This document shows positions 10,810 through 45,830 of a DNA stretch of 64,000 nt, piece by piece (position 1 is the stretch's first letter; each line of letters begins with the position of its first letter). The position numbers were made by a program, and so were the translations under genes. The notes beneath the pieces are model-generated. The model saw only the letters and a list, made by a program, of their open reading frames with translations, was not told where the DNA came from and made no database searches. Origin of the DNA: a virus; IMG/VR virus record IMGVR_UViG_3300045988_092366; one strand, given 5' to 3'.

Positions 10810-11026
10810 GCTAATCTTCTTTCTCTTGGAACCCACGGGAGGTTTCTTATCCCCTCCCTTTCTTTAATTATATTATACTATAAGTTTTTACTGGCCGCAA
10901 GAACTTTTTCAAGATGAATTTGGTTTTGAAAATGAAAACCGAAATGGAATTCAATTTCGTTTTAGAAATGAAATTCGTTTTTGTAATTGGAATCGAAAAT
11001 TAAAAGGGTTGGGCTGAATTTTTTTC

Positions 11027-11055
11027 TTGACATTGGTTTGCTGAACTGGTAAAAT
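11027..11055 (+). promoter_or_regulatory. Plus-strand promoter TTGACA-17-TAAAAT reading antisense into the 3' end of gene 11154..12005
   Basis: tcTTGACAttggtttgctgaactggTAAAATgcg; no plus-strand ORF downstream. Confidence 0.35.
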
Positions 11056-11153
11056 GCGCACTTCAATGAATTAAGTCATGTAATCATTTTTACACTTATA
11101 TGGACTTTCTTCACAGCTTTAACACTGTATACACAATGCTTATGTTGTCATTT

Positions 11154-12005
11154 TTAGTCTTCCAACATAGACTTCACTTTAAGTTCATTTGGCGACAACG
11201 AGAATAGAGCCTGTACAACGTCAGCATTTGCAGATTTTTTCGCCAAATGTTCAAGCCATGCGTCACCACATTCTTCACCAAGTTTTTTATAGTAGTCCTT
11301 GATTTCACTAAGAGTAACCAACTTGCACTCTTTATTATCAATATCAGCATACGCTTTTATTTCTTTCAACGTATTCTCAATAGATTCCTTCTGCGCACGT
11401 GCATAATCATTTACCCTGTAGAGTTCAGTATAAAGACCTTTCTTTCCCTTACGGTATACAGCTTTCCCCGCATACTCGATAAGACCTACATCCCTAAGCA
11501 CGATAAGGAACTCGTCTACTCGGCGAATATTCCTTGCGTTCTTGCAATATCCAAGAGCCTTCAAAATCTCAGTGCGGGAAAAGAAATAATTCTCACCACC
11601 CTTAAAGAATGCTTCATGAAGTTGATACCACCTTTTAAGATAGCAATATGTCTTGAAGCAATCTGCGCTTAACGCACTGAGACAGAATCTAACGGTATCC
11701 ACAGGGATAGTGACATACTGTCCTTCCACTGGCTGCACGATAACGTTCATACCATTTATCTTGATAACATCCAATGATTCAAAGCAACTCATGACATTTC
11801 TGATTTGATAGTTCGTCAAGCCTACACTTTTCAATCTGGCTCGGCTGTCCTTCATAGATAGAATTCTCGTATTGTCCTTCTCCAATCTAGTATCTAACAT
11901 TAGACTTCCCATAGCATTGTAGTCACAGTTTTTATTTTCCAATTTCTCTGGGTCTACGCTAAAACTCAACTTAGGTGCTTTGTGGCTTTCTTCTTTATCT
12001 GTCAT
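11154..12005 (-). CDS. Winged-helix-like protein, putative replication initiator or regulator, sitting beside iterons
   Basis: Start trimmed to MTDKEESHK (RBS AAGGAGA). The C-terminal region RTEILKALGYC...LIVLRDVGLIEYAGKAVYRKGKKGLYTELYRV looks winged-helix-like. Five iterons lie immediately upstream. Confidence 0.45.
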   Translation of the reverse strand: MTDKEESHKAPKLSFSVDPEKLENKNCDYNAMGSLMLDTRLEKDNTRILSMKDSRARLKSVGLTNYQIRNVMSCFESLDVIKINGMNVIVQPVEGQYVTIPVDTVRFCLSALSADCFKTYCYLKRWYQLHEAFFKGGENYFFSRTEILKALGYCKNARNIRRVDEFLIVLRDVGLIEYAGKAVYRKGKKGLYTELYRVNDYARAQKESIENTLKEIKAYADIDNKECKLVTLSEIKDYYKKLGEECGDAWLEHLAKKSANADVVQALFSLSPNELKVKSMLED

Positions 12006-12076
12006 ATTTCTCCTTTCTTGCATACGCGTGCATGACATATTATTTATTAAAATAATTTATTATATAATTTATTAGG

Positions 12077-12320
12077 GGTGTTCATTTTTTAACAGTTTTG
12101 AAGGGACTGGTGTTCATTTTTTAACTATTTTACCTTAACTGGTGTTCATTTTTTAACTTTCTAACCACTCCTTTCACTTCATTAAAAATTTAAGGTTAAA
12201 AAATAGTCACCAAAGTACCTGCGGAAATAGTAACTGGTGTTCATTTTTTAACCGTTTTGACACTGGTGTTCATTTTTTAATCGCTCCGAAAGTGAAAAAA
12301 TAGCCACCAAAATACCTGCG
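12077..12320. repeat. Iteron array: GGTGTTCATTTTTTAA x5 direct, plus two inverted related copies (gtYaaaaaatagYcaccaaaRtacctgcgg)
   Basis: Copies at 12077, 12109, 12141, 12236 and 12265; inverted-type copies at 12195 and 12291. Spacers are 12-14 nt, which rules out CRISPR. Confidence 0.75.
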
Positions 12321-12527
12321 GTTTTGTCATTTGCCAATCCGTCTTGTCCGTTCAAAATAATTTACCGCGCTATTGCGCCATTACTTAGTTAACACGCAAA
12401 AACGTATAAGCTAACTTCACACGAACATCAAAATGCTTCGCCGCACCTACAGTATAACATACTTTGTTTATTTTGTCAAGTAAAAGAAAAGACCCACGGC
12501 CATAGGCCGCAGGTCTTTTACTACGCA

Positions 12528-13064
12528 CTATTTAATTTTTTTATCCTTCTTTTGGATACAAATATATTCAGATACCCAGTCTTCATCATCAAGAGTACCC
12601 GTGTGAATCTTTAATGAATAACTCTCTTCTGCTTCTTGAAGAGCAGCTGTAAATGTTTGATAAGTCAAATAATCGCCGGCAATATAATCTAAATGCTCAA
12701 GAGGAATAACGCAAATATCCTTATCGCTGCAAACATAAACATAATGAACATACTCTGCTAGCAGATGTACAACTTTATAAGGTTCATTGACCAATTGAAT
12801 ACAGGTTTTATACATAGTATCAATTTCATCAATATCAAATGGCAAGCCCCAAGATACTACGATGATAGGCTTTTTATCGTCTTTTTGATACCAAGTGGAT
12901 TCAAAGCCCTTTTGCTGAAAATGTAAAACAACTGCATGACACTCTTGGAGAGTCATATCCTCATTTGCAACCCTTGTGACACAATTCTGATTATGCGGCT
13001 TATCCAAATTCTTATATATCTCTTGTGCCATATCATCAACAAAATTATGTATATTATTCATCAC
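12528..13064 (-). CDS. Hypothetical protein (178 aa)
   Basis: ORF with RBS GAAAGAG. Confidence 0.5.
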   Translation of the reverse strand: MMNNIHNFVDDMAQEIYKNLDKPHNQNCVTRVANEDMTLQECHAVVLHFQQKGFESTWYQKDDKKPIIVVSWGLPFDIDEIDTMYKTCIQLVNEPYKVVHLLAEYVHYVYVCSDKDICVIPLEHLDYIAGDYLTYQTFTAALQEAEESYSLKIHTGTLDDEDWVSEYICIQKKDKKIK

Positions 13065-13359
13065 TACGCTCTTTCATAGCTACAAAATATCCCCAAGTAT
13101 CCATTGTATACTTCCAGTTACTATTAACCTTTATACCACACAATTCTAACATATCAGGTATAGGCCAAAAATGCCTGCTGCCTAAAGGACACCAGACTTC
13201 ACGTTCAGGACATACATGCTTATGAAGTTCTTCTTTGCTGACAATAATAGCAGTTCCATATGGCACAGTTTCAAGCATGTCATACACATAATCCATAATT
13301 TTAAACTGCCAGTCAATCATAGCGTCTTTTCCTCTTGTATCGGAGAACAACGGATACAT
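13054..13359 (-). CDS. Hypothetical protein (101 aa)
   Basis: ORF with RBS AGGTAGGTGA. Confidence 0.5.
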   Translation of the reverse strand: MYPLFSDTRGKDAMIDWQFKIMDYVYDMLETVPYGTAIIVSKEELHKHVCPEREVWCPLGSRHFWPIPDMLELCGIKVNSNWKYTMDTWGYFVAMKERSDE

Positions 13360-13371
13360 ATTATCACCTAC

Positions 13372-13698
13372 CTACTGAAGTCCATCAATTGCATCAATGC
13401 TAGAAAGAATAGTCTTACCATCTTCCTTAACCATATGACAAGCAAAAGGATAATCAGAGAAATAGTTATCAGTTACAGGCAGATAGAGATAGTAATCATC
13501 CTCTTCATCTACGCCAGCGACCAAGACATCATCAATCAGGTCATACATAGTCGGCAGCTCAGTATCATTACACGTATCCCGATTGGTCGCAAGAATCTCA
13601 ACCCGATAACCCGCGCACTTATAAATATAATACGCCGCAGATGCCACGAAATCCAAAGTCCAATAGACGTTCTCATACTTCTCATTAGTCAACAGCAT
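13372..13698 (-). CDS. Hypothetical acidic protein (start trimmed to MLLTNEKY)
   Basis: RBS GGATTAGGAGTG lies before the second ATG. Confidence 0.45.
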   Translation of the reverse strand: MLLTNEKYENVYWTLDFVASAAYYIYKCAGYRVEILATNRDTCNDTELPTMYDLIDDVLVAGVDEEDDYYLYLPVTDNYFSDYPFACHMVKEDGKTILSSIDAIDGLQ

Positions 13699-13706
13699 AT
13701 GCACTC

Positions 13707-14036
13707 CTAATCCCAATCGTTGACAGTCCAATAGACGCTCAAATGACCGCCGGGCTTATTATCATACTCGTCAGCATCATGCCAATAGTAATCACAGACA
13801 CACAGACCAAGGTCCTCAAGAGTATTCTTGGCATCGAGCATTTCCTTCTCAGTCCCCTCGCAAACAACCCAATAGGCGCAACCAGCATAATAGTCCTTGC
13901 GCTCTTCAAGAAGCATATCGGCAGCAATGTTCACCAGAGGAGCAACTTCCTTCCAGAGCTTGCGGCCGTTGACAACCTCATATGCCGCGTCCAGAAGGCC
14001 GTCAACCTGTGCAAGAATCGTCTCAACCTTAGTCAT
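13707..14036 (-). CDS. Hypothetical protein (109 aa)
   Basis: RBS AAGGAGAAAG plus the conserved promoter-leader. Confidence 0.55.
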   Translation of the reverse strand: MTKVETILAQVDGLLDAAYEVVNGRKLWKEVAPLVNIAADMLLEERKDYYAGCAYWVVCEGTEKEMLDAKNTLEDLGLCVCDYYWHDADEYDNKPGGHLSVYWTVNDWD

Positions 14037-14128
14037 ATACTTTCTCCTTCTCTTGGAGGATTTTATCTTGTCCTCTCCCTTTCTCTATATATATTATATA
14101 ATAATATAGAGCAGACCGCAAGAACTTT

Positions 14129-14419
14129 TTATAGGTCAATTTCCTCCAGAGACAGATGAATACAATACTTGCCGCCAACTTTGGCATAACTAAGGCAATC
14201 CCAATGTGCTTTATAGCCAAAAGACGTGATAATGTAATTGATAGCCGCAATCACATAATCCATGTCACTCATGCAATTAGCAGGAATGTAGAAAAAATTA
14301 GGGCAATCTACATTCTCACGCATACGACAAATAACATCGACAGTCTTCGTGAGAATATTTTTATCCTTAATGCGAGCAAGAATAACATTAAGACGAAGGT
14401 TATCATATTTGTTGGTCAT
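14129..14419 (-). CDS. Hypothetical protein (96 aa)
   Basis: Conserved promoter-leader TATATAAT...AAAGAAAGGCAAGGAAAGGAA upstream. Confidence 0.55.
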   Translation of the reverse strand: MTNKYDNLRLNVILARIKDKNILTKTVDVICRMRENVDCPNFFYIPANCMSDMDYVIAAINYIITSFGYKAHWDCLSYAKVGGKYCIHLSLEEIDL

Positions 14420-14505
14420 TTGAATTCCTTTCCTTGCCTTTCTTTAATAATATTATATAACATTATTAAACAGACTGCAAGAAAAATCTTATGCGGCCAA
14501 TGGCC

Positions 14506-14730
14506 TTATTCTTTCTTTTCTTGGATTACCTCACGCACAAGAAACACAGTTTCCCTTGCCGCATACAGAATCATACAGATACCAACGATAAAACCAATAA
14601 CACATAGGACAGTGAAAATAAGCAGACTCATAGGAGAACTACCAATCAATGTCGCCAGTGTCATTATCATGTCCCCAACAGGAGAATATAAAAGACAAGA
14701 CAGCGCATACTCCAACGATTGAACAAACAA
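14506..14730 (-). CDS. Small membrane protein (TTG start, or internal ATG at MIMTLATL)
   Basis: Two hydrophobic stretches; AGGAG lies 9 nt before the TTG. Confidence 0.4.
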   Translation of the reverse strand: MFVQSLEYALSCLLYSPVGDMIMTLATLIGSSPMSLLIFTVLCVIGFIVGICMILYAARETVFLVREVIQEKKE

Positions 14731-14762
14731 GACAGACAGCTCCTAACACTTCATCAATCATA

Positions 14763-14924
14763 ATCTTCATTATCCCATGCATCAATTACATTGCCGAGCC
14801 AATCATAGAAAGTTTCGCCGCTACCGCTTTCAATCTTATTAACATAATCAGCAATATTATCTGTATCGTCAGTAGCACCAAGGGCATCTAAAATATCATC
14901 ATAGATATAATCCATATAACCTCC
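14763..14924 (-). CDS. Small acidic protein (53 aa), below the ORF-track cutoff
   Basis: Hand translation gives MDYIYDDILDALGATDDTDNIADYVNKIESGSGETFYDWLGNVIDAWDNEDYD with a GGAGG RBS. Confidence 0.45.
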
Positions 14925-14972
14925 AATAGCAAAAAGGAGAATAGATTTCTCTACTCTCCTTGTGCGGCCAAT

Positions 14973-15695
14973 CTAGTCTTCAAAATTCATTTCTTTTCGT
15001 TCTTGGCGCTCATAGTTTTGGCCGTCCTCGAAGCCTTCATCGTAACCATCTTCACGACCTTCATAGTAGCCATCTTCACGACCATCTGCATAGCCAGTAT
15101 CGTAACCATCTTGCCAACTGGTGACTTTATCGTTGTGTACATCGGTACAATATGTTTTCAAAACTTTGTTATATGCGCCAGCAGTCTGAAAATAATGTTT
15201 GGCAACACACGCATTAAAACCTGCGGACTCACTCCACACGTCGTTCTCAGCACACTTGGAACGAGTAACCTTACCGTCACGCCACCACACGATAGTCCAA
15301 GGATTATCGTACTTGACGCGCTTAATCATATTAACCGAATTTTGATTAAACTTGCGGCTAATCTCTTCCTCGTGCTTTTGCTTCTTCTTAGCTAGCTTCT
15401 CATAGCCCTCGATAAGTGCAGGATAGAGGAATTCAATCAAATCATCATCAAGTTCCATATCCACGATATTGTCTGCAAAATCAGTACCATAGTGAAACTT
15501 AGCAAGGAACTTAGAATTCAAAGCAGCAAGCTGATGTGCGGCACGTGCAATCTCAGCGGTCTTAACATCTGAATGGGTCACAACATCGCTCCTATAAAAT
15601 GCAGCATCGGGATTCTTTACCCTCTCAACACCAATCACACTAGTTCTCCTTACCAAAATCCTTTTGGACTTGCTCAAAATACTTATAAAGGTCAT
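14973..15695 (-). CDS. Hypothetical protein (240 aa) with C-terminal repeats DGYDTGYADGREDGYYEGREDGYDEGFEDG
   Basis: ORF; overlaps the upstream gene by 56 nt. Confidence 0.5.
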   Translation of the reverse strand: MTFISILSKSKRILVRRTSVIGVERVKNPDAAFYRSDVVTHSDVKTAEIARAAHQLAALNSKFLAKFHYGTDFADNIVDMELDDDLIEFLYPALIEGYEKLAKKKQKHEEEISRKFNQNSVNMIKRVKYDNPWTIVWWRDGKVTRSKCAENDVWSESAGFNACVAKHYFQTAGAYNKVLKTYCTDVHNDKVTSWQDGYDTGYADGREDGYYEGREDGYDEGFEDGQNYERQERKEMNFED

Positions 15696-16086
15696 CGTTC
15701 AGCTCACACAGCATTGCGATACGAATCCACGTATCGAACTTAGTGATACCTTCCTGACCATGCCCCATGAACTCATACCAAGGCACCTCGTCACCGTACT
15801 GGTCTTCGAGCAGCTCACGAATATCCTCGTCAGCGAACATATTCGCAATCATCTCATAATCAGGCGAATATGTCACAAGGAAACAATCAGGATGTCCCGC
15901 GGACGAAGCATTGCCAGTTACATCATCTGAAAAATACAAATCATCAAAAACTTCATCGCTCCAGTCGGTATTGGCATTATACGTGCCGTCCTCGAAGTTT
16001 GCAACGATGAAATTCTTCGCATCGTCCTCGACCATATTCTTGAAAGAAAGATAAATCACACCCATTTTAATTCCTCTCTTGGACAA
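15640..16086 (-). CDS. Hypothetical acidic protein (148 aa)
   Basis: ORF with AAGAGAGGAA RBS. Confidence 0.5.
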   Translation of the reverse strand: MSKRGIKMGVIYLSFKNMVEDDAKNFIVANFEDGTYNANTDWSDEVFDDLYFSDDVTGNASSAGHPDCFLVTYSPDYEMIANMFADEDIRELLEDQYGDEVPWYEFMGHGQEGITKFDTWIRIAMLCELNDDLYKYFEQVQKDFGKEN

Positions 16087-16120
16087 ACTGATATATCAGA
16101 AGGTAAACTAACACATTAGA

Positions 16121-16321
16121 TTAAAGGCTCTGAATGCTGCCGACATAGCCCTCATAGACAAGATGATGCTCACGAAGGTTCTTGGCGGCAACCTCGGCCA
16201 TGATGCGGTCAAGCTGCTCAAGGCTCTTGAACACGCACTCAGTATACTCGATGCCGCAGAAGCGACCATCACCCTCGTAGAACTTGTTGAAGATGATGTT
16301 AGCCTTCATGTACTTAGCCAT
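16121..16321 (-). CDS. Hypothetical protein (66 aa)
   Basis: Conserved promoter-leader upstream. Confidence 0.5.
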   Translation of the reverse strand: MAKYMKANIIFNKFYEGDGRFCGIEYTECVFKSLEQLDRIMAEVAAKNLREHHLVYEGYVGSIQSL

Positions 16322-16400
16322 ATTGGAGAACCTTTCTTCCTTGCCTTTCTTTAATTATATTATATAACAATTTCAAACAGAACGCAAGAACTTTTTTGGA

Positions 16401-16724
16401 CTAATGACGCATAATAGGATAGAATAACCGTTGATAAAGTATTTGACCGCAATCTTGCCACCACTTTTCACGGTCTGCTGGAATATATACAGTGACCATA
16501 ATATCGCAAAGTTCCCAATAAGGTTTTATGGGTTCAACGCTACAATATGCAAAAAAACGATATTTATTTAATAAATCAATCGCTTTCTTAATGTTTTTAC
16601 GAGTGCGTTTATCACAGCCTTTATAAACTGAACACCACTCAAATTGAGTCGGCGGCATAAAAATTGTCTTTTTAAGGAAATATTTAAAAAAGACATTGGT
16701 TTCGCAATGGGTCAAAATATTCAT
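16401..16724 (-). CDS. Hypothetical protein (107 aa)
   Basis: ORF in the tiling path. Confidence 0.45.
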   Translation of the reverse strand: MNILTHCETNVFFKYFLKKTIFMPPTQFEWCSVYKGCDKRTRKNIKKAIDLLNKYRFFAYCSVEPIKPYWELCDIMVTVYIPADREKWWQDCGQILYQRLFYPIMRH

Positions 16725-16731
16725 ATTACCT

Positions 16732-17010
16732 CTAATAATAATAACAAACAGTCACTTCTACTTCCTCAGTACCATCGCAATGATGTGCAGATTTAATGCC
16801 AATTTTATATCCAGCTTCGGCATACTTAGCAAGGACTTTAATATCGGCTTCGCTCAAATATAGAAGATAAAGGGTACAATACGTAGTATTATCATAGGCG
16901 CTGTACTTTAAAGCTGTGTCAATCATAGTCTCAAGACTGGTATGTTCGTTTGCATGAGAAGGATTATTATGAATGTATTCGCGCTTAAATTCTAAAGGTT
17001 GAATCATCAA
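16732..17010 (-). CDS. Hypothetical protein (92 aa)
   Basis: ORF in the tiling path. Confidence 0.45.
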   Translation of the reverse strand: MMIQPLEFKREYIHNNPSHANEHTSLETMIDTALKYSAYDNTTYCTLYLLYLSEADIKVLAKYAEAGYKIGIKSAHHCDGTEEVEVTVCYYY

Positions 17011-17012
17011 TT

Positions 17013-17282
17013 CTACTTTCCATTGTTAAACCGATAAGAAAACGAAGCTGCGAGCTTTGTTTTGTCGCCATAAGAACGCGGTTCGATAGTAACTTCGTAG
17101 CCGGCATTTATATATTTTGTTAAAAGTTTCATCTTTTCAGCAGAGATTTCTTGAAAAACGTAAGTAAAGTTGCAGGAATCAGTTACACGATTATATGTTA
17201 ATCCATCATCAATATGACGCTCAAGGCTCATACCAAAATCTTCATTAAGCTGCCTATCTTTAACTTCATAGGGTGAAATCAC
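17013..17282 (-). CDS. Hypothetical protein (89 aa)
   Basis: ORF in the tiling path. Confidence 0.45.
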   Translation of the reverse strand: MISPYEVKDRQLNEDFGMSLERHIDDGLTYNRVTDSCNFTYVFQEISAEKMKLLTKYINAGYEVTIEPRSYGDKTKLAASFSYRFNNGK

Positions 17283-17291
17283 ATTTACTCC

Positions 17292-17450
17292 TTAATAAGA
17301 CAAAAGTTCCCAAGTATTGACCAGAAATGCTTCGTTCGTATCGACTGCATACAGAAGGACATGACCATCGCCATAAATTTCTTCAATCTGGCAGATGATA
17401 AACTTGCGAGTATAAGGGTTAAGATACTGTACATAATCGTTGCGCTTCAT
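17292..17450 (-). CDS. Small protein (52 aa), below the ORF-track cutoff
   Basis: Hand translation gives MKRNDYVQYLNPYTRKFIICQIEEIYGDGHVLLYAVDTNEAFLVNTWELLSY; RBS GGAAAG and conserved promoter upstream. Confidence 0.45.
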   Translation of the reverse strand: MKRNDYVQYLNPYTRKFIICQIEEIYGDGHVLLYAVDTNEAFLVNTWELLSY

Positions 17451-17530
17451 ATACTTTCCTTTCCCTCTTGGTATACTTATATTATATACTATTATTTCAC
17501 CATCTGCAAGAAAAATTTTAGATGTGCGGC

Positions 17531-17707
17531 TTAAAGATTACTCATATAATATAGATTATCTACCAAAAGACGAAAATAACGTCCAAGCATATCATCAGAT
17601 AGGATATATCTGCTAGGCGGCACACTAATTTCAGGACGTATATTGGCAAACCCATCTGTATTCTCAAATGAAATATGTATAGTACCAGTAGTAGGATACG
17701 TATACAT
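17531..17707 (-). CDS. Hypothetical protein (start ambiguous: TTG at 17752 or ATG at 17707)
   Basis: The conserved CCAAGAGAAA leader sequence sits inside the annotated N-terminus, which favours the later start. Confidence 0.35.
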   Translation of the reverse strand: MYTYPTTGTIHISFENTDGFANIRPEISVPPSRYILSDDMLGRYFRLLVDNLYYMSNL

Positions 17708-17888
17708 AAAAAATACACAACGACCTAATTTCTCTTGGCTACATTTAGACAAAACGTCAAAATGACAACACTCAGAGCCAGCATCATTATAAAATTTTAC
17801 ATGTCCAACAGTTCATTTGGAAGTTCTCCTATCAAGAGAACAATCTTTCAAAGCGTTATAGATTTTCTCAAGAATCTTCATATCTCTC

Positions 17889-18287: not shown

Positions 18288-18289
18288 GA

Positions 18290-18628: not shown

Positions 18629-18629
18629 C

Positions 18630-36686: not shown

Positions 36687-36688
36687 TA

Positions 36689-39035: not shown

Positions 39036-39116
39036 ATTAAATCCTTTCGAACTTTAAAAATGCTTATACTATATATAAAGTATAAAGTTCGAATTATACA
39101 ATTTTGTCCAAGATAT

Positions 39117-39407
39117 TTAATAAGTGATGATATAGACCTTGCGGCTAGTGTCGTGATAAATCTGCGTCACTTCTGCTAAAATGTTGTGCAGTACAGCATC
39201 GCCAACAATCTTCTTAGCTTCATCATCGCCATATGCGAGAATAAAATGCGGAACAATTGCATCGTATGTATCACGAACAGGAACGCGCTTGCCATTAACG
39301 AAATCTACAAGGGTAGTATACTGTTCACACCATACAAATACAAAATTCGGATTGAGCTTTGTAATGTATGAATTCATTTCCTTGTCAGGAATAATAATAC
39401 AATTCAT
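39117..39407 (-). CDS. Hypothetical protein (96 aa)
   Basis: ORF in the tiling path. Confidence 0.45.
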   Translation of the reverse strand: MNCIIIPDKEMNSYITKLNPNFVFVWCEQYTTLVDFVNGKRVPVRDTYDAIVPHFILAYGDDEAKKIVGDAVLHNILAEVTQIYHDTSRKVYIITY

Positions 39408-39496
39408 TACTTAAATCGCTTTCCATAGTAATATGCGTATACAGAAAAAAGAAAAATAGAAACAATTCCTATAATTACAATCAACATGTTATCACC

Positions 39497-39940
39497 TTAG
39501 TAAAGTTCTTGAAAAGCCAAACCATTATCATCTGTGTAATAGATATGGCGAATTCCTTTGTCTCGCAAAGCGTTAAGACATGCGGCGCAAGGAAAACTTC
39601 TGCCCATAAGAAGTGGCTTGCCGGGCGAGATACGATAAATATAAATGTTTGCCTTGCTATAATTGATATTTATATCAATACACTTTGGAATATTTAGCAA
39701 ACAATCCATTTCAGCGTGCAAATAATCATGAATAGGCTTTCCATTATACCTAAAAGTCCTATATTTACGATTATACTTTTTCTGCAAAGGATTGGTCTTG
39801 CGACTATTATGACCAGTAGCAAGAACACGTCCCTTGTATGAGATTACCGCCCCGAGTTTGAAAGGTTCATATGTAGATTCCAGTGCCGCCTTTCGCGCCA
39901 AATCAAACATCTTCATATCATGCTTACTAAACTCAGCCAT
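39497..39940 (-). CDS. dCMP/cytidine deaminase family protein
   Basis: HAEMDCL (H-A-E) and PCAACLNAL (PCxxC) zinc-binding motifs. Confidence 0.75.
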   Translation of the reverse strand: MAEFSKHDMKMFDLARKAALESTYEPFKLGAVISYKGRVLATGHNSRKTNPLQKKYNRKYRTFRYNGKPIHDYLHAEMDCLLNIPKCIDININYSKANIYIYRISPGKPLLMGRSFPCAACLNALRDKGIRHIYYTDDNGLAFQELY

Positions 39941-40005
39941 TTATTAAATCCTTTCACATCTTATATTATATATAATATCATAAGATGTATCCAGTGTCAA
40001 GAATT

Positions 40006-40218
40006 TTATTTCACCAAAGTAAAATTAGGATGATAGCCAATCGACTTGCCGCATAGTGTAAGCAAGTTTACACAATTTGAGATAATACGTTCATACTCTT
40101 TAGTGCTATTGGCATTCTCCAATAGAGAAATAGAAGCGGCCATAGAAGTTTTTGCAAACTCTACAGGGCTTAACTCAATATAGATTTTTGCTTCTGGTGA
40201 TAAATCGTTCCAATTCAT
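40006..40218 (-). CDS. Small protein (70 aa)
   Basis: ORF in the tiling path. Confidence 0.45.
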   Translation of the reverse strand: MNWNDLSPEAKIYIELSPVEFAKTSMAASISLLENANSTKEYERIISNCVNLLTLCGKSIGYHPNFTLVK

Positions 40219-40279
40219 ATGACCGCATCCTTTCTTAAACTAAATATATTATAGAATAAAATAATTCAAAAGTCAATAA

Positions 40280-41254
40280 TTATTTTTCATCGTATGCGGC
40301 AAAAGCATTTAGCATTTTAGTGATAAGAGCGTGCCTTACAACATCTGCTTCTGTCATGCGGACAACGCCGATACCAGATACATCTTTCAGACTATTGGCA
40401 AGATATTCAAGACCGCTTTCGCCTTTGGAATCTTGCTGAACCAAGTCGCCGCACAAGACAATCTTAGAATCTTCTCCTAAACGTGTGACTGCAAGTTTTC
40501 CTAGAATCGTATTCATATTCTCTGCTTCATCCACGAGAAGGAAAGTCTTATATAGAGAACATCCGCGCATATATCCTAGCGGTAACATCTTAATTTTACC
40601 CTTTTCGATATATGAATCAAGTTTCTCACGCCCGAGAACTCGTTCAAATACATCCATCATAGGAAGTGCATATAGTGAAAACTTTTCATCGGCAGTGCCG
40701 GGAAGTGCGCCTAAATCTGCTTCACCTTTTGCTGAAACCATTGGACGAGAGATAACGATAGTATCTACGTTCTTATTGATAAGCTGAGACAGAGCATAGC
40801 ATACTGCTGTATAGGTCTTGCTTGCACCAGGAGGAGCAATACAAATAGTAATAGCATTGTGCCGCATACTATTTAGATATTCAAGTTGACCTTCTGTGCG
40901 GACCTTGATTTCTTTCTTACCATATTTCAAAATCGTGGTAGAAGAATCAGAATTGTCAAAGATGCCGCCATCCGCACTTTGCCTTGCAAGAAGCTGTACT
41001 TCATCTGTACTGATTTCGTCTTTTGAGCAAGCAATTTCAATCAGCTTTTCAAATACCTCTTGAGCTTGATGTACAGATTTCTCCTTGCCAAAAATTACGA
41101 TATTATTCTCTTCCTTAGAGCGTCCAAGATTAACACGTAGAGAGTCATCAATTTGCTCTTTAATGGCCTTCACATACCTATCTGATGGGCCTAGCACATT
41201 GACGGCATCAATACCACGAGGAATAGACACGTTAACTTGGATACTGTTGTTCAA
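40280..41254 (-). CDS. phoH: PhoH-like ATPase
   Basis: P-loop APPGASKTYTAV; LVDEAENM and CGDLVQQD motifs; N-terminal KH-like region. Confidence 0.75.
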   Translation of the reverse strand: MNNSIQVNVSIPRGIDAVNVLGPSDRYVKAIKEQIDDSLRVNLGRSKEENNIVIFGKEKSVHQAQEVFEKLIEIACSKDEISTDEVQLLARQSADGGIFDNSDSSTTILKYGKKEIKVRTEGQLEYLNSMRHNAITICIAPPGASKTYTAVCYALSQLINKNVDTIVISRPMVSAKGEADLGALPGTADEKFSLYALPMMDVFERVLGREKLDSYIEKGKIKMLPLGYMRGCSLYKTFLLVDEAENMNTILGKLAVTRLGEDSKIVLCGDLVQQDSKGESGLEYLANSLKDVSGIGVVRMTEADVVRHALITKMLNAFAAYDEK

Positions 41255-41267
41255 TAGAATCCCGCCT

Positions 41268-41861
41268 TTAATCTAATACTAGCTCCGTATTCTTCTTATA
41301 TCGCTCATAGTCCTCTTGCGGCACATCGAATACAGTAAAGATACCTGTCTTAATATACACGCCACCCATATTACCGTCACGCTTAATGCGACCGAGCATG
41401 TCTTTCCATCCGTCCTCAATCACTTCAACGCGTTGTTTGTCTGGCGCTACGACATATGCAGCAGAATATTTGCGACCTTCTTCTTTGCTTACTTCACCGC
41501 TAAGATAAAGATACTGTGGAGTTTTACTAATATCTTCCTCATATGAACGATATATAGAAACCATGTTATCCATGAGGTTTCCTAAAACATAGATTTGAAG
41601 GATAGGACGCACATGCTTGTAATCACAAATGACAGTATTGAGCCAATCGTTTAAGGACATGTCCTCGCATTTAAACTCTGCGCCAAAATCGTCCATCAAC
41701 ATAACTTCAAAGTCAAGTTCTTCTTCATCATCTTCGATGTTAAAGTCAATCGCTTCGGAGATATAATATTCAATTTCATCATATGAAATAAGATTATCAA
41801 ATTGTCCATATAAAGTATATGGAATATCATTTACAATAGTTTGAATCTTGCAATAACGCAT
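41268..41861 (-). CDS. Hypothetical protein (197 aa)
   Basis: ORF abutting the SPOUT gene. Confidence 0.5.
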   Translation of the reverse strand: MRYCKIQTIVNDIPYTLYGQFDNLISYDEIEYYISEAIDFNIEDDEEELDFEVMLMDDFGAEFKCEDMSLNDWLNTVICDYKHVRPILQIYVLGNLMDNMVSIYRSYEEDISKTPQYLYLSGEVSKEEGRKYSAAYVVAPDKQRVEVIEDGWKDMLGRIKRDGNMGGVYIKTGIFTVFDVPQEDYERYKKNTELVLD

Positions 41862-41862
41862 A

Positions 41863-42435
41863 TTAACCTTTCATCCTATAGCGTCGAGAGTATTCCATCA
41901 TGCAACATGCTGCGCTTTGCGCAACATTCAATGAGCGGCAAGAGCCATATTGACGAATATAAATCATTTCATCACACTTGTCAATGATTTCTTTTGGCAG
42001 TCCATCACATTCATTTCCATATACAAATGCAGACTTCATTGGAATATCAGCATCATAAATATTCTGCGGATTATACTCTGGAATATTATCTACAGCAAAA
42101 ATAGTATATCCAAGAGGATGAAGAATCTCAAGAACTTCATCGAAATCATCAGCATGATATACAGTTTCATATCTATGAGTGCTAATTGAACCACGCCTAT
42201 CCCATTTCTTGCGGCCAACGATATAGACTTCTTTTCCAAGAAACGCATTATTCGCGCGAATACCACTTGCGATATTGATATTATAGTTGACATTCATGAA
42301 GATGGAGACAATCGGAAGTCGATTCTTCTGCAAATCTGCTTTAATCTCTTCGTCAGTCCACTGCTTGTATGCGTCAATCACATTACGCTTTGCTGTCTCA
42401 CAGAATTCAGTGCTGCAACCATATTGAGTAATCAT
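41863..42435 (-). CDS. SPOUT (TrmH/SpoU-like) RNA 2'-O-methyltransferase
   Basis: Motif 2-like FVYGNECDGL and motif 3-like RSLNVAQSAACCMMEY. Confidence 0.6.
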   Translation of the reverse strand: MITQYGCSTEFCETAKRNVIDAYKQWTDEEIKADLQKNRLPIVSIFMNVNYNINIASGIRANNAFLGKEVYIVGRKKWDRRGSISTHRYETVYHADDFDEVLEILHPLGYTIFAVDNIPEYNPQNIYDADIPMKSAFVYGNECDGLPKEIIDKCDEMIYIRQYGSCRSLNVAQSAACCMMEYSRRYRMKG

Positions 42436-42443
42436 AATATCCT

Positions 42444-42680
42444 TTACATATTAATTAGAATAGTAAGCATTAAATATCCATAGTTCTTATCAACTTTAAT
42501 ATTGAAAGTAACAACATCTGCCTTTAAAATCGCGTCATGTTGTTCCTTTATCCATTCATTAAACGGAACAGAAGAAGTGCTCATTTCAGGAATGTTATAC
42601 ATCGCAAATGAAATATATAAGTTATTTCGCATATCATCATCAATAGCATCTAACAGACAATAAACATTCATATTTACCAC
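42444..42680 (-). CDS. Small protein (78 aa)
   Basis: ORF in the tiling path. Confidence 0.45.
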   Translation of the reverse strand: MVNMNVYCLLDAIDDDMRNNLYISFAMYNIPEMSTSSVPFNEWIKEQHDAILKADVVTFNIKVDKNYGYLMLTILINM

Positions 42681-42955
42681 TCAATCAATGAAAGCTGGTC
42701 AGTAAGGCGCTGGGACAGTTCATCATCTTCAATATAGAAAATATCTTCCTTGTCATTTACAAGATAATTAGAGATAATCTGCCCAAAACGCTGGTCAGGG
42801 TACTGCTCCCAAAGGTCTTGAAACTTTACAAGAATATCATAGATTCTATTTACATCACGCATAATTGTTCCTTTCAAATATAAAGTCAAGAGACTCCTAC
42901 TGGTAATGCTCCAGTTTAAACGCCTTTGCAGGGCGCTGCATAACTTTTCTGCCAA
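42674..42955 (-). CDS. Hypothetical protein (93 aa)
   Basis: ORF in the tiling path. Confidence 0.45.
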   Translation of the reverse strand: MAEKLCSALQRRLNWSITSRSLLTLYLKGTIMRDVNRIYDILVKFQDLWEQYPDQRFGQIISNYLVNDKEDIFYIEDDELSQRLTDQLSLIEW

Positions 42956-43204
42956 GGAGTCTCTTGACTTTATATTTGTATTATATTATATATAAAGTCA
43001 AAAGTCAATTAAAACATTTCAAGAAATGCCTTATAGATTTCAAAACGAAACTTTTCAAAACGTGCGGCAAATGCAATATACGAATAGCCGCACATAAAAA
43101 GTACATATAGTACAAATAGACAATCTGCCATTACTACTCCCTAGAATTAAACATGAGACATGCTACAGTGTAGCCAAAAAAGAAACCAATAGCAAAACAA
43201 ATCA

Positions 43205-43393
43205 TTACTTAATCTTGACCTTCCAAATATCATCGTATGTGTATGGAACGTTGTCAAGATTTTTCTGCTGCGGACTTGCTTTAGCACGAATCTTTCGAGT
43301 CTCTAAGGCTATATGCTCCATATAGCATTTCCCAGCAATTGCCGCAATCACAAGAACAGTGATGCAGATAATTGTAATAGCATCAATTCCCAT
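43205..43393 (-). CDS. Small single-TM membrane protein (62 aa)
   Basis: TM segment AITIICITVLVIAAIAG; conserved promoter upstream. Confidence 0.5.
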   Translation of the reverse strand: MGIDAITIICITVLVIAAIAGKCYMEHIALETRKIRAKASPQQKNLDNVPYTYDDIWKVKIK

Positions 43394-43479
43394 TATTCTT
43401 CCTTCTCTTGGATTTCATTTAAGTCTATTATATAGCAAAAAAGTCCCAAAGTCAATAGAAACTTTGGGACTAATTTATA

Positions 43480-44412
43480 TTATTTTGTATTGACTACTGG
43501 TGTTGACCCTTGCGGCACAACTACAGTATTACCATTCTTTGACATTTCCTTTAAAGCATCAATGTACTCTTGGGTTAGAACATTATCAGTTAGAGACTCG
43601 TTGAGAACACGGTTTGCTTCTGCTTCTTTCGTAGCTTCGATAACCTTAGTCTCACCCTTAATCTTTGCAGTTTCCTGCTGGTTTTGAGCCTTGGCTTTCT
43701 CTACTTCTGCGGCCTGAGAATCAGCATACGCGTCAGTAATAGACTTAGCATAAGAAATATCCTGAACGCTTACCTGCTCAACAGTAAGACCAATCTTAGA
43801 CCACTTCTTTTCAAGAGCCTTTTGGACAGCCTTGGTATACTGAGCGCGGTCAGTTAGCATTGTAATGGTATCGAATTGACCAGAAACTTCACGTGCTACA
43901 GAACGGAGGTCATTAGCTGCATAATTCTTGGTGAAGTTCTCTTGGGTGCCGTATTCAGTGTAAAGATACTCAGCTGTCTTCGGGTCAAGGCTATAGTTAA
44001 TCTGAATATCAACATTAGCAGAAGAACCTGACTTATCATTTACAGTTACGCAAGGACCCTCAGCAGAACCACCATCATAAGAGTATTCTGTATCTTTACC
44101 GTAAAAGTTGATTAAGTTATTGCGCGTATCAAACGTAATCACATCATTCCAAGGTGCGGTAAAGTGAAAGCCTGCATCTGTAGTAGACCCAGCTAGATTG
44201 CCGCCAAGAGAACGAAGAACAACTACTTCACCTACGTCTTGTGAGTAGACACAGCCAAGGCCAATAGCAATTAGACCAAGCACGATAACTACCGCTCGTA
44301 GCCCTAGTGGAACACGCTCTTCATGTTTATCTTCTTTGAAGAAAGATAGACATACGGCAATTCCTACAACCGTAATGATTACACCAATAATAAAAATAAG
44401 AATTTTAAACAT
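43480..44412 (-). CDS. SPFH/band-7 (stomatin/prohibitin-like) membrane protein
   Basis: Two N-terminal TM segments, then QDVGEVVVLRSLGG...GFHFTAPWNDVITFDTR and a C-terminal coiled-coil. Confidence 0.65.
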   Translation of the reverse strand: MFKILIFIIGVIITVVGIAVCLSFFKEDKHEERVPLGLRAVVIVLGLIAIGLGCVYSQDVGEVVVLRSLGGNLAGSTTDAGFHFTAPWNDVITFDTRNNLINFYGKDTEYSYDGGSAEGPCVTVNDKSGSSANVDIQINYSLDPKTAEYLYTEYGTQENFTKNYAANDLRSVAREVSGQFDTITMLTDRAQYTKAVQKALEKKWSKIGLTVEQVSVQDISYAKSITDAYADSQAAEVEKAKAQNQQETAKIKGETKVIEATKEAEANRVLNESLTDNVLTQEYIDALKEMSKNGNTVVVPQGSTPVVNTK

Positions 44413-44455
44413 TATAACCTTTCATCATAGTTGACTTTAATATTCAATTGTAAGA

Positions 44456-44968
44456 CTAGATTGCTTTTAATTGGTCAATGATTGGCAAGATTTGCATATT
44501 GCTTGTGCCGATAGCGTAGTTTTGCTGCTCTGAAATAAATACAATCTTGTCAAACGGTTCATTGTCTTGTGGCGAAACTTTGCATCTATACATTTCTGCA
44601 ATTTCCTTTTCACTTAGACGATGATATTTATCACGATTCTTATTGCGCGCAACTGCTACATTTTGTGGAGTTTCAACCCAAACGCAAATAACTTCGCAGC
44701 CATTGTAATTTACATTGTTGAAAAACTTATCGCGCTCAACGCGATTGATATTGCGGTCATTCGCCACAACGTAACGATGTGATTTTAAGGCAATGTTAAC
44801 TGCGTTATAAAAGCGCTTGTCAACTGTGTCGGCTTCTTCTGAATTATACATGCGGCAATTATCTCTCTTGATTGCCATACAGTCTTCATGTGAATCTTGA
44901 ATTGCCTTTGCAAATACAGACTTACCGCTCTGCGTTACACCGCACATTAGAATTAGCGTATGCTTCAT
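44456..44968 (-). CDS. P-loop kinase (polynucleotide-kinase/dNMP-kinase-like)
   Basis: MKHTLILMCGVTQSGKSVFA is a Walker A motif. Confidence 0.55.
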   Translation of the reverse strand: MKHTLILMCGVTQSGKSVFAKAIQDSHEDCMAIKRDNCRMYNSEEADTVDKRFYNAVNIALKSHRYVVANDRNINRVERDKFFNNVNYNGCEVICVWVETPQNVAVARNKNRDKYHRLSEKEIAEMYRCKVSPQDNEPFDKIVFISEQQNYAIGTSNMQILPIIDQLKAI

Positions 44969-44974
44969 TTTTGC

Positions 44975-45355
44975 CTACCAATAGATAGTATACTTACTAA
45001 TCGTAATATCAATTCGGTCAACGCCACGGAAATAAGTTACTTGATAGTGTTCATTGCGTGTTACGTCATAGCCAAGAGACTCTTCAAGGGATGCAAATAC
45101 TTCCTTCTGTGGATTGGTGAAGTCTTTCTCTGCGGCAGGAACGATGCTACCGCTCTGAACGATTTCTTCGTAGAAGTCAGATACATGCGGATAGAAGTCT
45201 ACACTATTCTTACCATCATTGGCTGCTTTCTCAATATCTTTCATTACAATATTGAAATAATCATATTTTTGAACTTGCTTGAACCGCTCTTCCCTTTTCT
45301 TCTTTAGAGCTAAGTAACGCATGTCACGTGCTTTTTCTGCTGTAATTGGTTCCAT
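44975..45355 (-). CDS. Hypothetical protein (126 aa), first gene of the minus block
   Basis: Promoter TTGACA-17-TATAAT (tgtcaa at 45410-45415) with leader AAAAGAAAGGA. Confidence 0.5.
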   Translation of the reverse strand: MEPITAEKARDMRYLALKKKREERFKQVQKYDYFNIVMKDIEKAANDGKNSVDFYPHVSDFYEEIVQSGSIVPAAEKDFTNPQKEVFASLEESLGYDVTRNEHYQVTYFRGVDRIDITISKYTIYW

Positions 45356-45419
45356 GTAATATCCTTTCTTTTATGCATTGGCTATATTATAAACCATAGT
45401 TATAATATTTGTCAATAGT

Positions 45420-45830
45420 TTTTTAAAGATAATTTGAGTAAAAATTTTTTCTTGACAAAAGATTTGAAAATCATTATACTTTTTAACTGGGTTGTTAAGG
45501 GGTTTACCCCTTAAATATATATAATATAAATTATATTAGTTTATAATGTAATTAAATTAGTTTATATATTAGTTTATATGTATATATTGATTTTTATATA
45601 TATAAGAGATATTATATAATTGTTTTATATATAAGAGATATTATTATAAAGAAATTCCTGTGCTACGCACAGTAATTTCTATTAAAAGAAGAGAATAAAA
45701 GAATAAAGAAAAATAAACTACTTTACTACGTAAAGTAGTAAAAAGAAACAGGAAAAAGAGAAGAAAAAAGTTCTTGCGTGCGGCCAAAAATTCATGTATA
45801 ATGTAGCTATGAAAACAAGAGAAAGGATTT
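45420..45830. repeat. AT-rich divergent control region with direct repeats (tagtttata x3; tatataagagatattat x2; ctactttactacgtaaagtagtaaa palindrome)
   Basis: Lies between the first minus-strand and first plus-strand promoters; candidate origin of replication. Confidence 0.55.
45775..45804 (+). promoter_or_regulatory. Promoter TTGCGT-18-TATAAT for the RNA ligase gene; leader ACAAGAGAAAGGA
   Basis: ttcTTGCGTgcggccaaaaattcatgTATAATgtagc. Confidence 0.6.

Follow-up and report, generated by a model that had tools for sequence, protein, structure and literature searches.

Among the closest described systems, the promoter-early stem-loop (PeSL) elements are composite cassettes of T4-type phages (Arbiol et al. 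2010, PMC2839356; Comeau et al. 2014, PMC4122927), and SPO1's host-takeover module combines small early genes with strong sigma-A promoters and strong ribosome-binding sites (RBSs) (PMC6873191), the early genes of this phage being sigma-A-dependent (PMC13401047). At the level of single motifs, the start-associated sequences (SAS) of Cluster K mycobacteriophages are 13-bp elements that contain the Shine-Dalgarno core, are essentially confined to gene starts and have been proposed to take part in the initiation of translation (Pope et al. 2011, PMC3203893). The 5' polypurine or STAB-SD stabilisers of Bacillus, found in SP82 early RNA, cryIIIA and hbs, are sites where ribosome binding blocks RNase J1 (Hue et al. 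1995 as cited in PMC3997798, PMC7509114). Here, a 64,000-nucleotide (nt) stretch of the IMG/VR virus record IMGVR_UViG_3300045988_092366, hereafter designated as the window, was analysed for its repeated promoter-leader sequences and for a 7-nt word, CCAAGAG (CTCTTGG on the opposite strand), which occurs in many of these leaders and throughout the window. With a probability that we estimate at roughly 0.72, the repeats are early host-sigma promoter/RBS modules of a novel, uncultured large phage, and CCAAGAG belongs to a separate, genome-wide layer of DNA words. The early region differs among relatives through gene gain and loss. No single known class fits this locus, which assembles known kinds of element in a new form and an unexplained, potentially new word layer.

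A total of 37 promoter units were identified (Table 1), with 28 on the minus strand between 10.8 and 45.4 kb, eight on the plus strand between 45.8 and 62.3 kb, and one at 3476 (minus) before a sigma-factor-like gene. The minus-strand series includes 25 units located before protein genes and three before tRNAs. All 37 exhibit an exact or near-exact TATAAT and a 17- or 18-nt spacing, as expected for promoters of the sigma-70/sigma-A type. TATAAT is invariant in the 23 units that were aligned; an A is found 7 nt downstream in each of these (30 of 37 overall), and is immediately preceded by a T in at least 90% of them. As the AT-rich discriminator ends in this T-A, transcription most likely starts at the A located 7 nt after the -10. 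Chance and composition were ruled out as a source of the repeats and words by dinucleotide and codon-aware shuffles. The 20-mer TATAATATATTTAAAGAAAG, with up to three mismatches, has 12 occurrences (0.07 expected), none of them on the plus strand. There are 29 copies of TATAATATA, where composition predicts 2.9, and the 12-mer AAAAGTTCTTGC seven times exactly and eight times with at most one mismatch (0.88 expected).

Based on their -35 region, these promoters can be divided into two classes. Across the 37 units, about 24 carry TTGAC(A/T/C/G) and about 11 carry TTGC(N)(N) or TTGTAG, and the 28 minus-strand units comprise about 16 of the TTGAC type, often with a TG-extended -10, and about 10 with TTGC(G/A/C)N or TTGTAG and no TG. 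The first class (A) is defined by TTGAC(A/T), a 17/18-nt spacer and a TG-extended TATAAT, and dominates from 25.8 to 45.4 kb. The second (B) follows the pattern (AAAAAGTTC)TTGC(G/A/C)N-17-ttaTATAAT, usually continued by ATAnTTAAAGAAAG-(G/A)CAAGGAAG, and dominates from 10.8 to 23.5 kb; the upstream AAAAGTTCTTGC is exact in five of the approximately 10 non-TTGAC minus-strand promoters and in the plus-strand promoter 45797. An earlier note, made from the sequence of this DNA, had described one single promoter-leader cassette, a view that has to be abandoned in favour of these two classes. Its count of more than 20 minus-strand copies between 10860 and 45420 compares with the 28 units counted here, and the 20 positions that it listed all fall on minus-strand promoter-like sites. 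It had also proposed that most units are preceded by a hairpin and a T-run, yet convincing terminators were found directly upstream of, or overlapping, only seven of the 28 promoters (12456, 23520, 26257, 29671, 36425, 37917 and 43432), two of which have their -35 hexamer inside the terminator stem.

The leaders, taken from the inferred +1 to the start codon, are short (median 26 nt), rich in purines (76%) and essentially unstructured (about -2 kcal/mol, mean z-score -0.4), and they merge into a strong Shine-Dalgarno sequence; an A-rich tract lies upstream of the promoters. The RBSs are complementary to the Firmicute-type 16S tail (AGAAAGGAGG; GAAAGGAGG), and this type of Shine-Dalgarno sequence points to a host among the Bacillota (Firmicutes). 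About 30 related IMG/VR contigs of 110-147 kb, mostly from one metagenome, share 84-97% nt identity with the window where alignable, and more distant relatives were found in many other metagenomes. When about 14 relatives were aligned at each position, the seven positions of the leader word displayed an identity of 0.95-0.997. They are on par with the promoter hexamers, the Shine-Dalgarno sequence and the start codon (0.95-0.99), and the regional mean is 0.91.

Two leaders (10865-10807 and 14086-14034, minus strand) carry a stable 5' hairpin placed right after the AAAGAAAG start and before CCAAGAG and the RBS. This hairpin (GGGAGGGG..CCTCCC) includes a Shine-Dalgarno-like GGAGG, and the whole 10877 leader folds at -17 kcal/mol. 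The two hairpins are possible 5' stabilisers or regulatory stems.

By analogy with the systems described above, such modules would be read by the RNA polymerase carrying the host primary sigma factor immediately on infection. From what is established for bacterial gene expression, many strong promoters would ensure that small takeover genes are transcribed immediately and at a high level, a strong RBS placed no further than about 15 nt from the 5' end would promote high translation, and the phage sigma-like gene would allow later transcription classes. One of the most over-represented hexamers in the window is GATATT (114 vs 75), which is also the -10 sequence used by late promoters in SPO1. 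Because they are near-identical over 50-75 nt, the modules would also act as homology patches for gene exchange between relatives, a role for which the mosaicism of the region provides partial evidence.

Alignments of the relatives to the window are split into many blocks between 10 and 33 kb. Of 139 breakpoint clusters, 21 (15%) have a -10 at no more than 60 nt, where 9.6% would be expected (p = 0.024), and the most recurrent are located in leaders (25814, 26226, 32125/32149, 16329-16397 and 14431). A gene swap illustrates this pattern: between two leaders, the window has an open reading frame (ORF) of 70 amino acids (aa) and the promoter c25837, whereas the relative L026 has an unrelated 124-aa ORF and no second promoter, with both junctions falling in leaders (AAAGAAAAG-CCAAGA and GCCAAAAGAAGGAGA). 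The cassettes match each other over 50-75 nt at 84-94% identity, and class B units share AAAAGTTCTTGC...TATAATATAnTTAAAGAAAGGCAAGGAAG, well beyond what a promoter needs. These hot breakpoints and cross-matches and the gene swap are also what would be seen if the similarity of the cassettes were mainly due to common descent or copying, with mobile regulatory cassettes spread by recombination in the way of PeSL mini-circles, and not to each position being selected independently for expression. We regard this explanation as unlikely, since invariance falls on exactly those positions that have a function (TTG, TATAAT, the +1 A, the Shine-Dalgarno sequence) while spacers and upstream sequences vary, and since the enrichment of breakpoints at cassettes is weak overall. 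Copying is nonetheless compatible with a function of the repeats as expression modules.

As expression modules, the repeats find their closer formal analogue in the T4-type PeSL rather than in the SPO1 module. Like PeSL, they combine many near-consensus early promoters of the sigma-70 type, an AT-rich upstream tract, and a Shine-Dalgarno sequence with a start codon at the 3' end; they lie in a variable region, separating small ORFs whose function is unknown, some with stem-loops upstream of or overlapping the -35, and close relatives differ by insertions, deletions and replacements with junctions in the cassettes, although the statistical support for the latter is modest. They differ from PeSL by having two classes of -35, by an added start-site context that is invariant and a purine leader that is conserved, and by the stem-loop or terminator, which is present in only seven of the 28 units instead of accompanying each element. 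The phage itself is not T4-like and uses Firmicute-type signals: no near relative was found among deposited phages, megablast returning no match for 45-55 kb and a single 117-nt match for 25-35 kb, and its topoisomerase II large subunit has at most 32% identity to any deposited phage record. The likeness to host-takeover clusters of SPO1-like phages, suggested in the earlier note, is fair as an analogy, both systems having small early genes of unknown function, multiple strong promoters of the host sigma-A type (here predicted), strong RBSs and a sigma-like factor of their own. It does not extend to homology with SPO1 genes (gp37-60) or to membership of Herelleviridae, since nine of the ten cassette-driven ORFs tested had no family in PHROG and the tenth matched a family of unknown function. 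In addition, where SPO1 has 26 genes in 12.4 kb, the present block covers about 35 kb with about 85 ORFs and 28 promoters, and is interspersed with tRNA and RNA-repair genes. The SPO1 module lies in the genome's terminal redundancy; here, contigs of several relatives stop at about 45.5-45.7 kb, beside an AT-rich repeat region.

CCAAGAG was found exactly in 12 of the 37 promoter leaders, and with one mismatch in five more; about 16-18 of its 56 copies in the window are leader copies. The word starts 8-17 nt after the -10, at +3 to +10 of the inferred transcript, this distance reaching 36-37 nt where a 5' hairpin is inserted (leaders 10877 and 14098). Counted to the ATG, the distance from the first C of the word is 17-21 nt for 12 out of 15 tabulated exact copies, or 15 of 18 when three starts missed by the gene caller (10823, 28145 and 31827) are added by hand. 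At real leaders its orientation is always sense, and it also occurs at RBSs having no promoter (16076, 19351 and 10387). As the spacing to the -10 varies and promoter-less RBSs carry the word, CCAAGAG belongs to the RBS and not to the promoter. Leaders hold the word at a density about 18 times that per strand inside genes, as calculated from the copy counts, and the association with RBSs is kept in a divergent relative (L053), where it concerns 7 of 26 copies.

Each of these observations (sense-only orientation at gene starts, regular distance to the ATG, occurrence at promoter-less RBSs, Shine-Dalgarno-like conservation, leader excess) would suit a purely RNA-level element of early mRNA leaders, acting as a translation enhancer or as a binding site for a phage or host factor. 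This was the position of the earlier note, which had favoured a post-transcriptional over a pure promoter role; the part that survives is that leader copies are real and track the RBS and the ATG. Even so, the core it described is exact at only 10 of the 20 sites listed, and among three further leaders said to carry it, only that of 48744 has an exact CCAAGAG, those of 45835 and of the 3430 operon having ACAAGAG and CCAATAG, respectively. What the note missed is that about 40 of the 56 copies lie outside leaders: they are intragenic, use either strand and are spread over all parts of the window, with sense and antisense copies equally split and each above codon-aware expectation (see below), a distribution that a post-transcriptional role leaves unexplained. 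In two relatives (L138 and L159), none of 44 copies (about 20 per 21 kb) is in an RBS context. Nor does the word compensate for weak Shine-Dalgarno sequences, whose strength is the same in leaders with and without it (p = 0.21), or extend a continuous pairing with the 16S tail, as its register with the Shine-Dalgarno core varies; to our knowledge, CUCUUGG is absent from the 16S sequence of B. subtilis. Internal start sites were ruled out for the intragenic copies, an RBS-like context being present only at true leaders. A purely RNA-level role is contradicted by the selection acting on antisense and intragenic copies, and is in our opinion quite improbable.

Comparison with known leader motifs leads to a similar picture. 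CCAAGAG shares with SAS a short, asymmetric and clade-specific sequence that is conserved among gene families, occurs in one orientation close to the start codons of numerous non-structural genes and overlaps or adjoins the Shine-Dalgarno sequence, but it is 7 nt long, lies 5' of the Shine-Dalgarno core and, instead of being restricted to gene starts, is mostly intragenic on both strands. As for STAB-SD, the likeness is one of sequence, and the polypurine stretch of the phage, a putative stabiliser, differs in being the genuine RBS of the first gene rather than a separate element.

On the scale of the whole window, the 56 copies of CTCTTGG/CCAAGAG compare with 5.15 expected (about 10-fold), the largest number reached in shuffled sequences being 12. 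Against protein-preserving shuffles of synonymous codons, intragenic copies remained in excess in both the sense (14 vs 1.8) and the antisense orientation (16 vs 5.0). They are intact in 85% of the relatives, against 60% for phase-matched 7-mers, with no resampling out of 2000 reaching the value of the word, and the variant CCAATAG is conserved alike (0.84 vs 0.59). The two strands carry balanced numbers of copies in all bins across the window, without the strand skew of Chi-type words, and the density in the ORF-poor region at 4-10 kb is 0.25 per kb per strand. In this clade, CCAAGAG is a 7-nt word that selection maintains on the two strands of the DNA throughout the genome, which argues for a function at the DNA level. 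Several simpler accounts of the enrichment were rejected. CTCTTGG stands apart from other TCTTG words, ruling out a general enrichment of TCTTG or of -35-like sequences; the flanks (+/-25 nt) of 157 CCAAGAG and 388 TGCGGC non-redundant copies hold no information that would define an extended or bipartite motif; and a directional conversion or repair drive was dismissed because one-step neighbours are not specifically depleted and the variants seen in relatives are ordinary transitions at all positions. A literature search for the CCAAGAG string as a motif returned only primer sequences.

A second family of words, TGCSGC, has similar properties. TGCGGC (139 copies) and TGCCGC (103 copies) each compare with 18.8 expected in the window, with enrichment on both strands, and 88% of 209 GCSGC sites have a 5' T or a 3' A. 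The family exceeds codon-aware nulls (41 vs 12 and 56 vs 8.8), and is conserved in excess (0.73 vs 0.62; p = 0.0005). No fixed spacing was detected between CCAAGAG and TGCGGC-type words in the window, and regular word spacing was ruled out by a Poisson-like distribution. Both types of word are about 13-fold over base composition in all close relatives and are enriched too in members with about 72% nt identity from other metagenomes; overall, the enrichment amounts to about 7-10-fold in the window, compared with dinucleotide expectation, and to 13-20-fold in relatives. More distant relatives display variants with a TGCGG core (TGCGGGA, TGCGGA/TTGCGG), as well as TTGCGC, with or without CCAAGAG.

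Window-specific mobile inserts lack any enriched word, as observed for the RuvB-like intein (22216-23326), which is missing from nearly all aligned relatives (at most two have it), and for a PD-(D/E)XK gene (31045-31510). The longest GCSGC-free gaps include the region of the GIY-YIG endonuclease gene (57860-58982). From the genome-wide density, the chance of finding no GCSGC site across all three inserts is about 3e-4. The two PD-(D/E)XK_5 genes and the GIY-YIG gene look like free-standing homing endonucleases. The window and its close relatives also avoid many restriction sites, including GATC (4 vs 475 expected), CCGG (44 vs 149), GAGGC/GCCTC (6 vs 68) and CCWGG (13 vs 49), while ATCGAT, CTGCAG, CTCGAG and AGATCT are all at zero. 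With such a strong avoidance, the enriched words are not part of a generally relaxed composition. GATC counts are near normal in some distant relatives, which suggests different hosts.

In Firmicutes, known Chi sequences include AGCGG in B. subtilis and GAAGCGG in S. aureus, which have a GCGG core in common. Chi sites are generally over-represented and differ between taxa (PMC3384302). CCAAGAG and the TGCGG words might therefore be DNA-level 'self' words, either mimicking Chi and taming a nuclease of the AddAB/RecBCD type or serving as sites for a clade-specific DNA-binding or processing protein. Enrichment on both strands in all regions of the window, excess conservation, self-contained words with no flanking context, Poisson-like spacing, lineage variants with a TGCGG core across a wide family found in many metagenomes, and inteins and homing-endonuclease genes devoid of words are all in line with this idea, which we hold as a tentative possibility. 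Leader copies would then be words parked where they are tolerated, since AGAG merges with the purine-rich RBS and the reverse orientation would pair with the Shine-Dalgarno sequence; yet the about 18-fold excess of CCAAGAG in leaders compared to other non-coding DNA exceeds what parking predicts. Like Chi, FtsK-orienting polar sequences (KOPS) and DNA uptake words, the phage words are short (5-8 nt), non-palindromic, over-represented, conserved beyond coding needs and variable among lineages. They depart from them in belonging to a phage and not to a chromosome, in having no strand polarity, unlike Chi in bacterial chromosomes, and in the joint enrichment of TGCGGC and TGCCGC with symmetric T/A flanks, which evokes a double-stranded quasi-palindrome, (TGCSGCA)-like, rather than a single-strand word; recognition by an enzyme is putative.

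At +3 to +16, CCAAGAG could also be an operator where a phage repressor or roadblock shuts off early genes, in the manner of mycobacteriophage L5 stoperators. The word falls within the RNA polymerase footprint of 12 promoters and is scattered in genes as stoperators are; a switch away from sigma-A is needed, the phage has its own sigma-like gene, and SPO1 offers precedents for early-gene inhibitors. Stoperators are oriented with transcription, in contrast to the random orientation of intragenic CCAAGAG (14 sense, 16 antisense). In Cluster K phages, SAS typically have one orientation and were contrasted with L5 stoperators, which act in transcription regulation (PMC3203893). Furthermore, CCAAGAG tracks the ATG and not the transcription start site, is found at promoter-less RBSs, is missing from more than half of the promoters and, with 7 bp, is short for a specific operator. 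Taken together, these data make an operator very improbable.

The about 18-fold leader excess and the sense-only orientation indicate that a purely DNA-level role explains the leaders only partly. CCAAGAG is consequently treated here as a clade-specific DNA word that occupies a privileged position next to the RBSs of early genes. About 18 leaders have it directly 5' of the Shine-Dalgarno sequence, where it probably provides a contact for a word-reading factor or is tolerated, there only, because AGAG blends into the RBS. A broader proposal, which we consider speculative and rather unlikely, is that a family of uncultured phages spanning at least a dozen metagenomes maintains lineage-specific short words as a genome-wide 'self-marking' or enzyme-guiding code, with CCAAGAG recruited beside the Shine-Dalgarno sequence of early genes. 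The variants concerned (CCAAGAG and TGCGG-C/-GGA/-A) would be under purifying selection on either strand, occur at about one copy per 0.25-1 kb and are missing from recently inserted homing elements, and the code could correspond to host Chi mimicry against AddAB-type nucleases or to a new phage-encoded recognition system. If true, the RBS-side CCAAGAG would couple early gene expression to a word-reading factor.

The promoter/leader modules represent expected biology for a large lytic phage and would provide ready-made, strong and compact expression signals for Firmicutes. For the words, enrichment, conservation, lineage variation and absence from inserts together indicate that these phages or their hosts read sequence through a process not yet recognised, which might be nuclease evasion, the guidance of recombination or a DNA-binding regulator. 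Should the word be read at both the DNA and the mRNA-leader level, genome maintenance would be linked to early gene control. These data also illustrate that a leader motif needs a genome-wide check before being called an RNA element.

Several points weigh against the view that the repeats are early expression modules standing beside a separate word layer. The start site, the strength of the promoters and their 'early' timing are deduced from consensus sequences, and the analogy with PeSL is incomplete since only about a quarter of the units have a terminator. A 5'-proximal RBS would shield the mRNA from 5'-to-3' decay by RNase J1, an expectation drawn from work in B. subtilis. The strength of the Shine-Dalgarno sequence is indifferent to the presence of CCAAGAG, and the association of breakpoints with cassettes is modest, in a set of relatives that are not independent and have many breakpoints at gene ends. 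Finally, a search for the host by scanning genome contigs identified only relatives of at most 54% identity in metagenome-assembled genomes (Eisenbergiella, Saccharibacteria), without word enrichment.

Table 1. Promoter units, leaders and associated genes in the window. Promoter units are described from the -35 to the -10 hexamer with the spacer length in nt.
Feature	Coordinates	Strand	Details
Early small-gene block	10807..45415	-	About 85 mostly small ORFs and 8 tRNA genes; 28 sigma-A-type promoter units; mosaic among about 30 relatives
Class B unit	10807..10900	-	AAAAAGTTC-TTGCGG-17-TATAAT, +1 AAAGAAAG, 5' hairpin (GGGAGGGG..CCTCCC), CCAAGAG, RBS, ATG
Promoter after strong terminator (12519-12487)	12444..12479	-	TTGACA-17-TATACT; no cassette-type leader
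Class B unit	14034..14121	-	TTGCGG-17-TATAAT, AGAGAAAG, leader hairpin, CCAAGAG-AAGGAG, ATG
Class B unit	14417..14480	-	TTGCAG-17-TATAAT, leader AAAGAAAGGCAAGGAAAGGA; without CCAAGAG
Class B unit	16319..16387	-	AAAAAGTTC-TTGCGT-17-TATAAT, leader AAAGAAAGGCAAGGAAGAAAGG; also a recombination breakpoint hot spot
Class B unit	17448..17509	-	TTGCAG-17-TATAAT, leader ATACCAAGAGGGAAAGGAAAG
Class B unit	18936..18999	-	TTGCGG-17-TATAAT, leader AAAGAAAGACAAGGAAGGGA
Hybrid unit	19826..19891	-	TTGACC-17-TATAAT, leader AAAGAAAGCCAAGAGGAAGAAGAAAG
Class B unit	20604..20665	-	AAAAAGTTC-TTGCAT-17-TATAAT, leader AGACCAAGAAGGAAAGGAAA (one-mismatch word)
Terminator (23573-23550), promoter and leader	23480..23573	-	TTGTAG-17-TGaTATAAT; before the intein-carrying RuvB-like gene
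Unit	25796..25861	-	Leader AAAGAAAGCCAAAAGAAGGAGA; relative L026 lacks the promoter part and keeps the leader/RBS only
Class A unit	26215..26321	-	Terminator (26321-26289), TTGACA-18-TGaTATAAT, leader AAAGAAAAGCCAAGAGAAAGG; left junction of the gene swap
Class A unit	28130..28194	-	TTGACT-18-TGcTATAAT, leader AAAGAAACCAAGAGAAAGAAGAAA
Class A unit	29636..29727	-	Terminator (29727-29704), TTGACT-18-TGtTATAAT, leader AAGAAATCGAAAGGAG; without CCAAGAG
Class A unit	31811..31871	-	TTGACT-17-TGaTATAAT, leader AAACCAAGAGAGAGAAGGAAG
Class A unit	32124..32185	-	TTGACA-18-TGaTATAAT, leader AACCAAGAGAAAGG; most frequent breakpoint among relatives
Consensus promoter	32651..32686	-	Upstream of tRNA gene cluster; without RBS leader
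Consensus promoter	33188..33224	-	Upstream of tRNA-Thr and downstream tRNAs
Class B unit	34126..34194	-	AAAAAGTTC-TTGCCA-17-TATAAT, leader AAAGAAAGAGAGAGGAAGG; CCAAGAG overlaps the -35 hexamer (TTG-CCAAGAG)
Class A promoter	34614..34690	-	TTGACT-17-TGtTATAAT; longer A-rich leader, without CCAAGAG
Class A promoter	36387..36462	-	-35 hexamer within terminator hairpin (36462-36435)
Class A unit	36869..36930	-	TTGACG-18-TGcTATAAT, leader ATAGCCAAGAGAGAGGAAAAG
Terminator (37988-37960), promoter and leader	37881..37988	-	TTGCCG-17-TGgTATAAT, leader AAACCAAGAGAGAGGAAG; before RNA ligase gene
Promoter and short leader	39938..40000	-	TTGACA-17-TATTAT or overlapping TATAAT; before dCMP-deaminase-like gene
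Class A unit	40216..40276	-	TTGACT-17-TATAAT, leader AGTTTAAGAAAGGA; without CCAAGAG
Promoter	42973..43008	-	Upstream of tRNA-Cys
Class A unit	43391..43471	-	-35 hexamer within terminator hairpin (43471-43442); leader AAATGAAATCCAAGAGAAGGAAG
First promoter of the block	45353..45415	-	TTGACA-18-TATAAT, leader ..AAAGAAAGGA; without CCAAGAG
Class B unit	45766..45837	+	AAAAAGTTC-TTGCGT-17-TGTATAAT, leader ..ACAAGAGAAAGGA; before RNA ligase gene
Class A unit	48677..48746	+	Leader ..TTCCAAGAGAAAGTGA; before TROVE/Ro60-like gene
Six more consensus promoters	46799..62306	+	-10 at 46822, 47848, 50274, 51645, 59369 and 62274; short purine-rich leaders without CCAAGAG
Promoter and leader	3428..3499	-	TTGCGT-17-TGgTATAAT, leader ..CCAATAGAGAAGGAG (variant word); before sigma-factor-like gene
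Promoter-less CCAAGAG-AGGA RBS	16065..16082	-	Inside operon
Terminator hairpin, then CCAAGAG-AGGAAA RBS	19340..19388	-	No promoter
CCAAGAG-ATAGAAGGAAG RBS after hairpin	10368..10393	-	No promoter
CCAAGAG RBS	61172	+	No promoter detected; before AAA_24 gene
Promoters in or near ORF-poor stretch	-10 at 7715, 7920, 9186	-	
Promoters in or near ORF-poor stretch	-10 at 9481, also 11050	+	
Sigma-factor-like protein	2342-3430	-	PHROG 5767; no Pfam hit; own RBS has variant word CCAATAG
RuvB-like AAA+ ATPase (RuvB_N, lid, RuvB_C)	21449-23482	-	In-frame LAGLIDADG/Hint intein of about 370 aa at 22216-23326
AAA_33 kinase-like protein	25319-25798		
Metallophosphatase	29102-29638		
PD-(D/E)XK_5 endonuclease genes	31064-31483, 38286-39035	-	Presence/absence varies among relatives
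RNA ligase gene	36933-37883	-	
SpoU methylase	41863-42435		
RNA ligase gene	45835-46767	+	
TROVE/Ro60-like gene	48744-50204	+	
GIY-YIG endonuclease gene	57808-58692	+	

From about 10 to 45.4 kb the genes lie on the minus strand; the plus strand takes over at 45.8 kb. Functions identified in the window include two topoisomerase II subunits, DNA ligase, ThyX, a DnaB-like helicase, an AAA_24 ATPase, the RuvB-like ATPase and PhoH, as well as two RNA ligases, the TROVE/Ro60-like protein, the SpoU methylase, the sigma-factor-like protein and eight tRNAs. A set of genes resembling RNA repair or RNA handling functions is found within 25319-50204, comprising those of the TROVE/Ro60-like protein, both RNA ligases, the AAA_33 kinase-like protein, the metallophosphatase and the SpoU methylase (Table 1), together with these eight tRNAs, which have their own consensus promoters.

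The region from 4000 to 10000 has a higher GC content (0.44-0.47) and few convincing ORFs, and nevertheless carries strong sigma-A-type promoters (Table 1). Two promoters, at 4739(+) and 8170(+), are followed by an identical 16-nt sequence, AATAGTTGTCCAAAGG. Rfam searches of the leaders and of the ORF-poor interval at 3.4-12.7 kb gave no match other than tRNAs at gathering thresholds and no credible one at E <= 1, which rules out a known RNA family in either. The ORF-poor stretch at 4-10 kb may encode novel non-coding RNAs, of interest given the TROVE/Ro60-like gene.

Repeats were also noticed in two intergenic regions. Upstream of gene 11154-12005, positions 12037-12158 contain a 32-nt tandem repeat in 2.6 copies (GGTGTTCATTTTTTAACTATTTTAAAGGAACT) and an adjoining 12-nt AT-rich repeat. 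The AT-rich divergent region between the two gene blocks (45400-45830) displays iteron-like sequences, with two copies of TATATAAGAGATATTAT and three to four of TTAGTTTATA, and small hairpins. Several contigs of relatives end at about 45.5-45.7 kb beside these AT-rich repeats, assembly ends that do not fix physical ends, and the region may be a replication origin, the end of the genome or a repeat that breaks assemblies.

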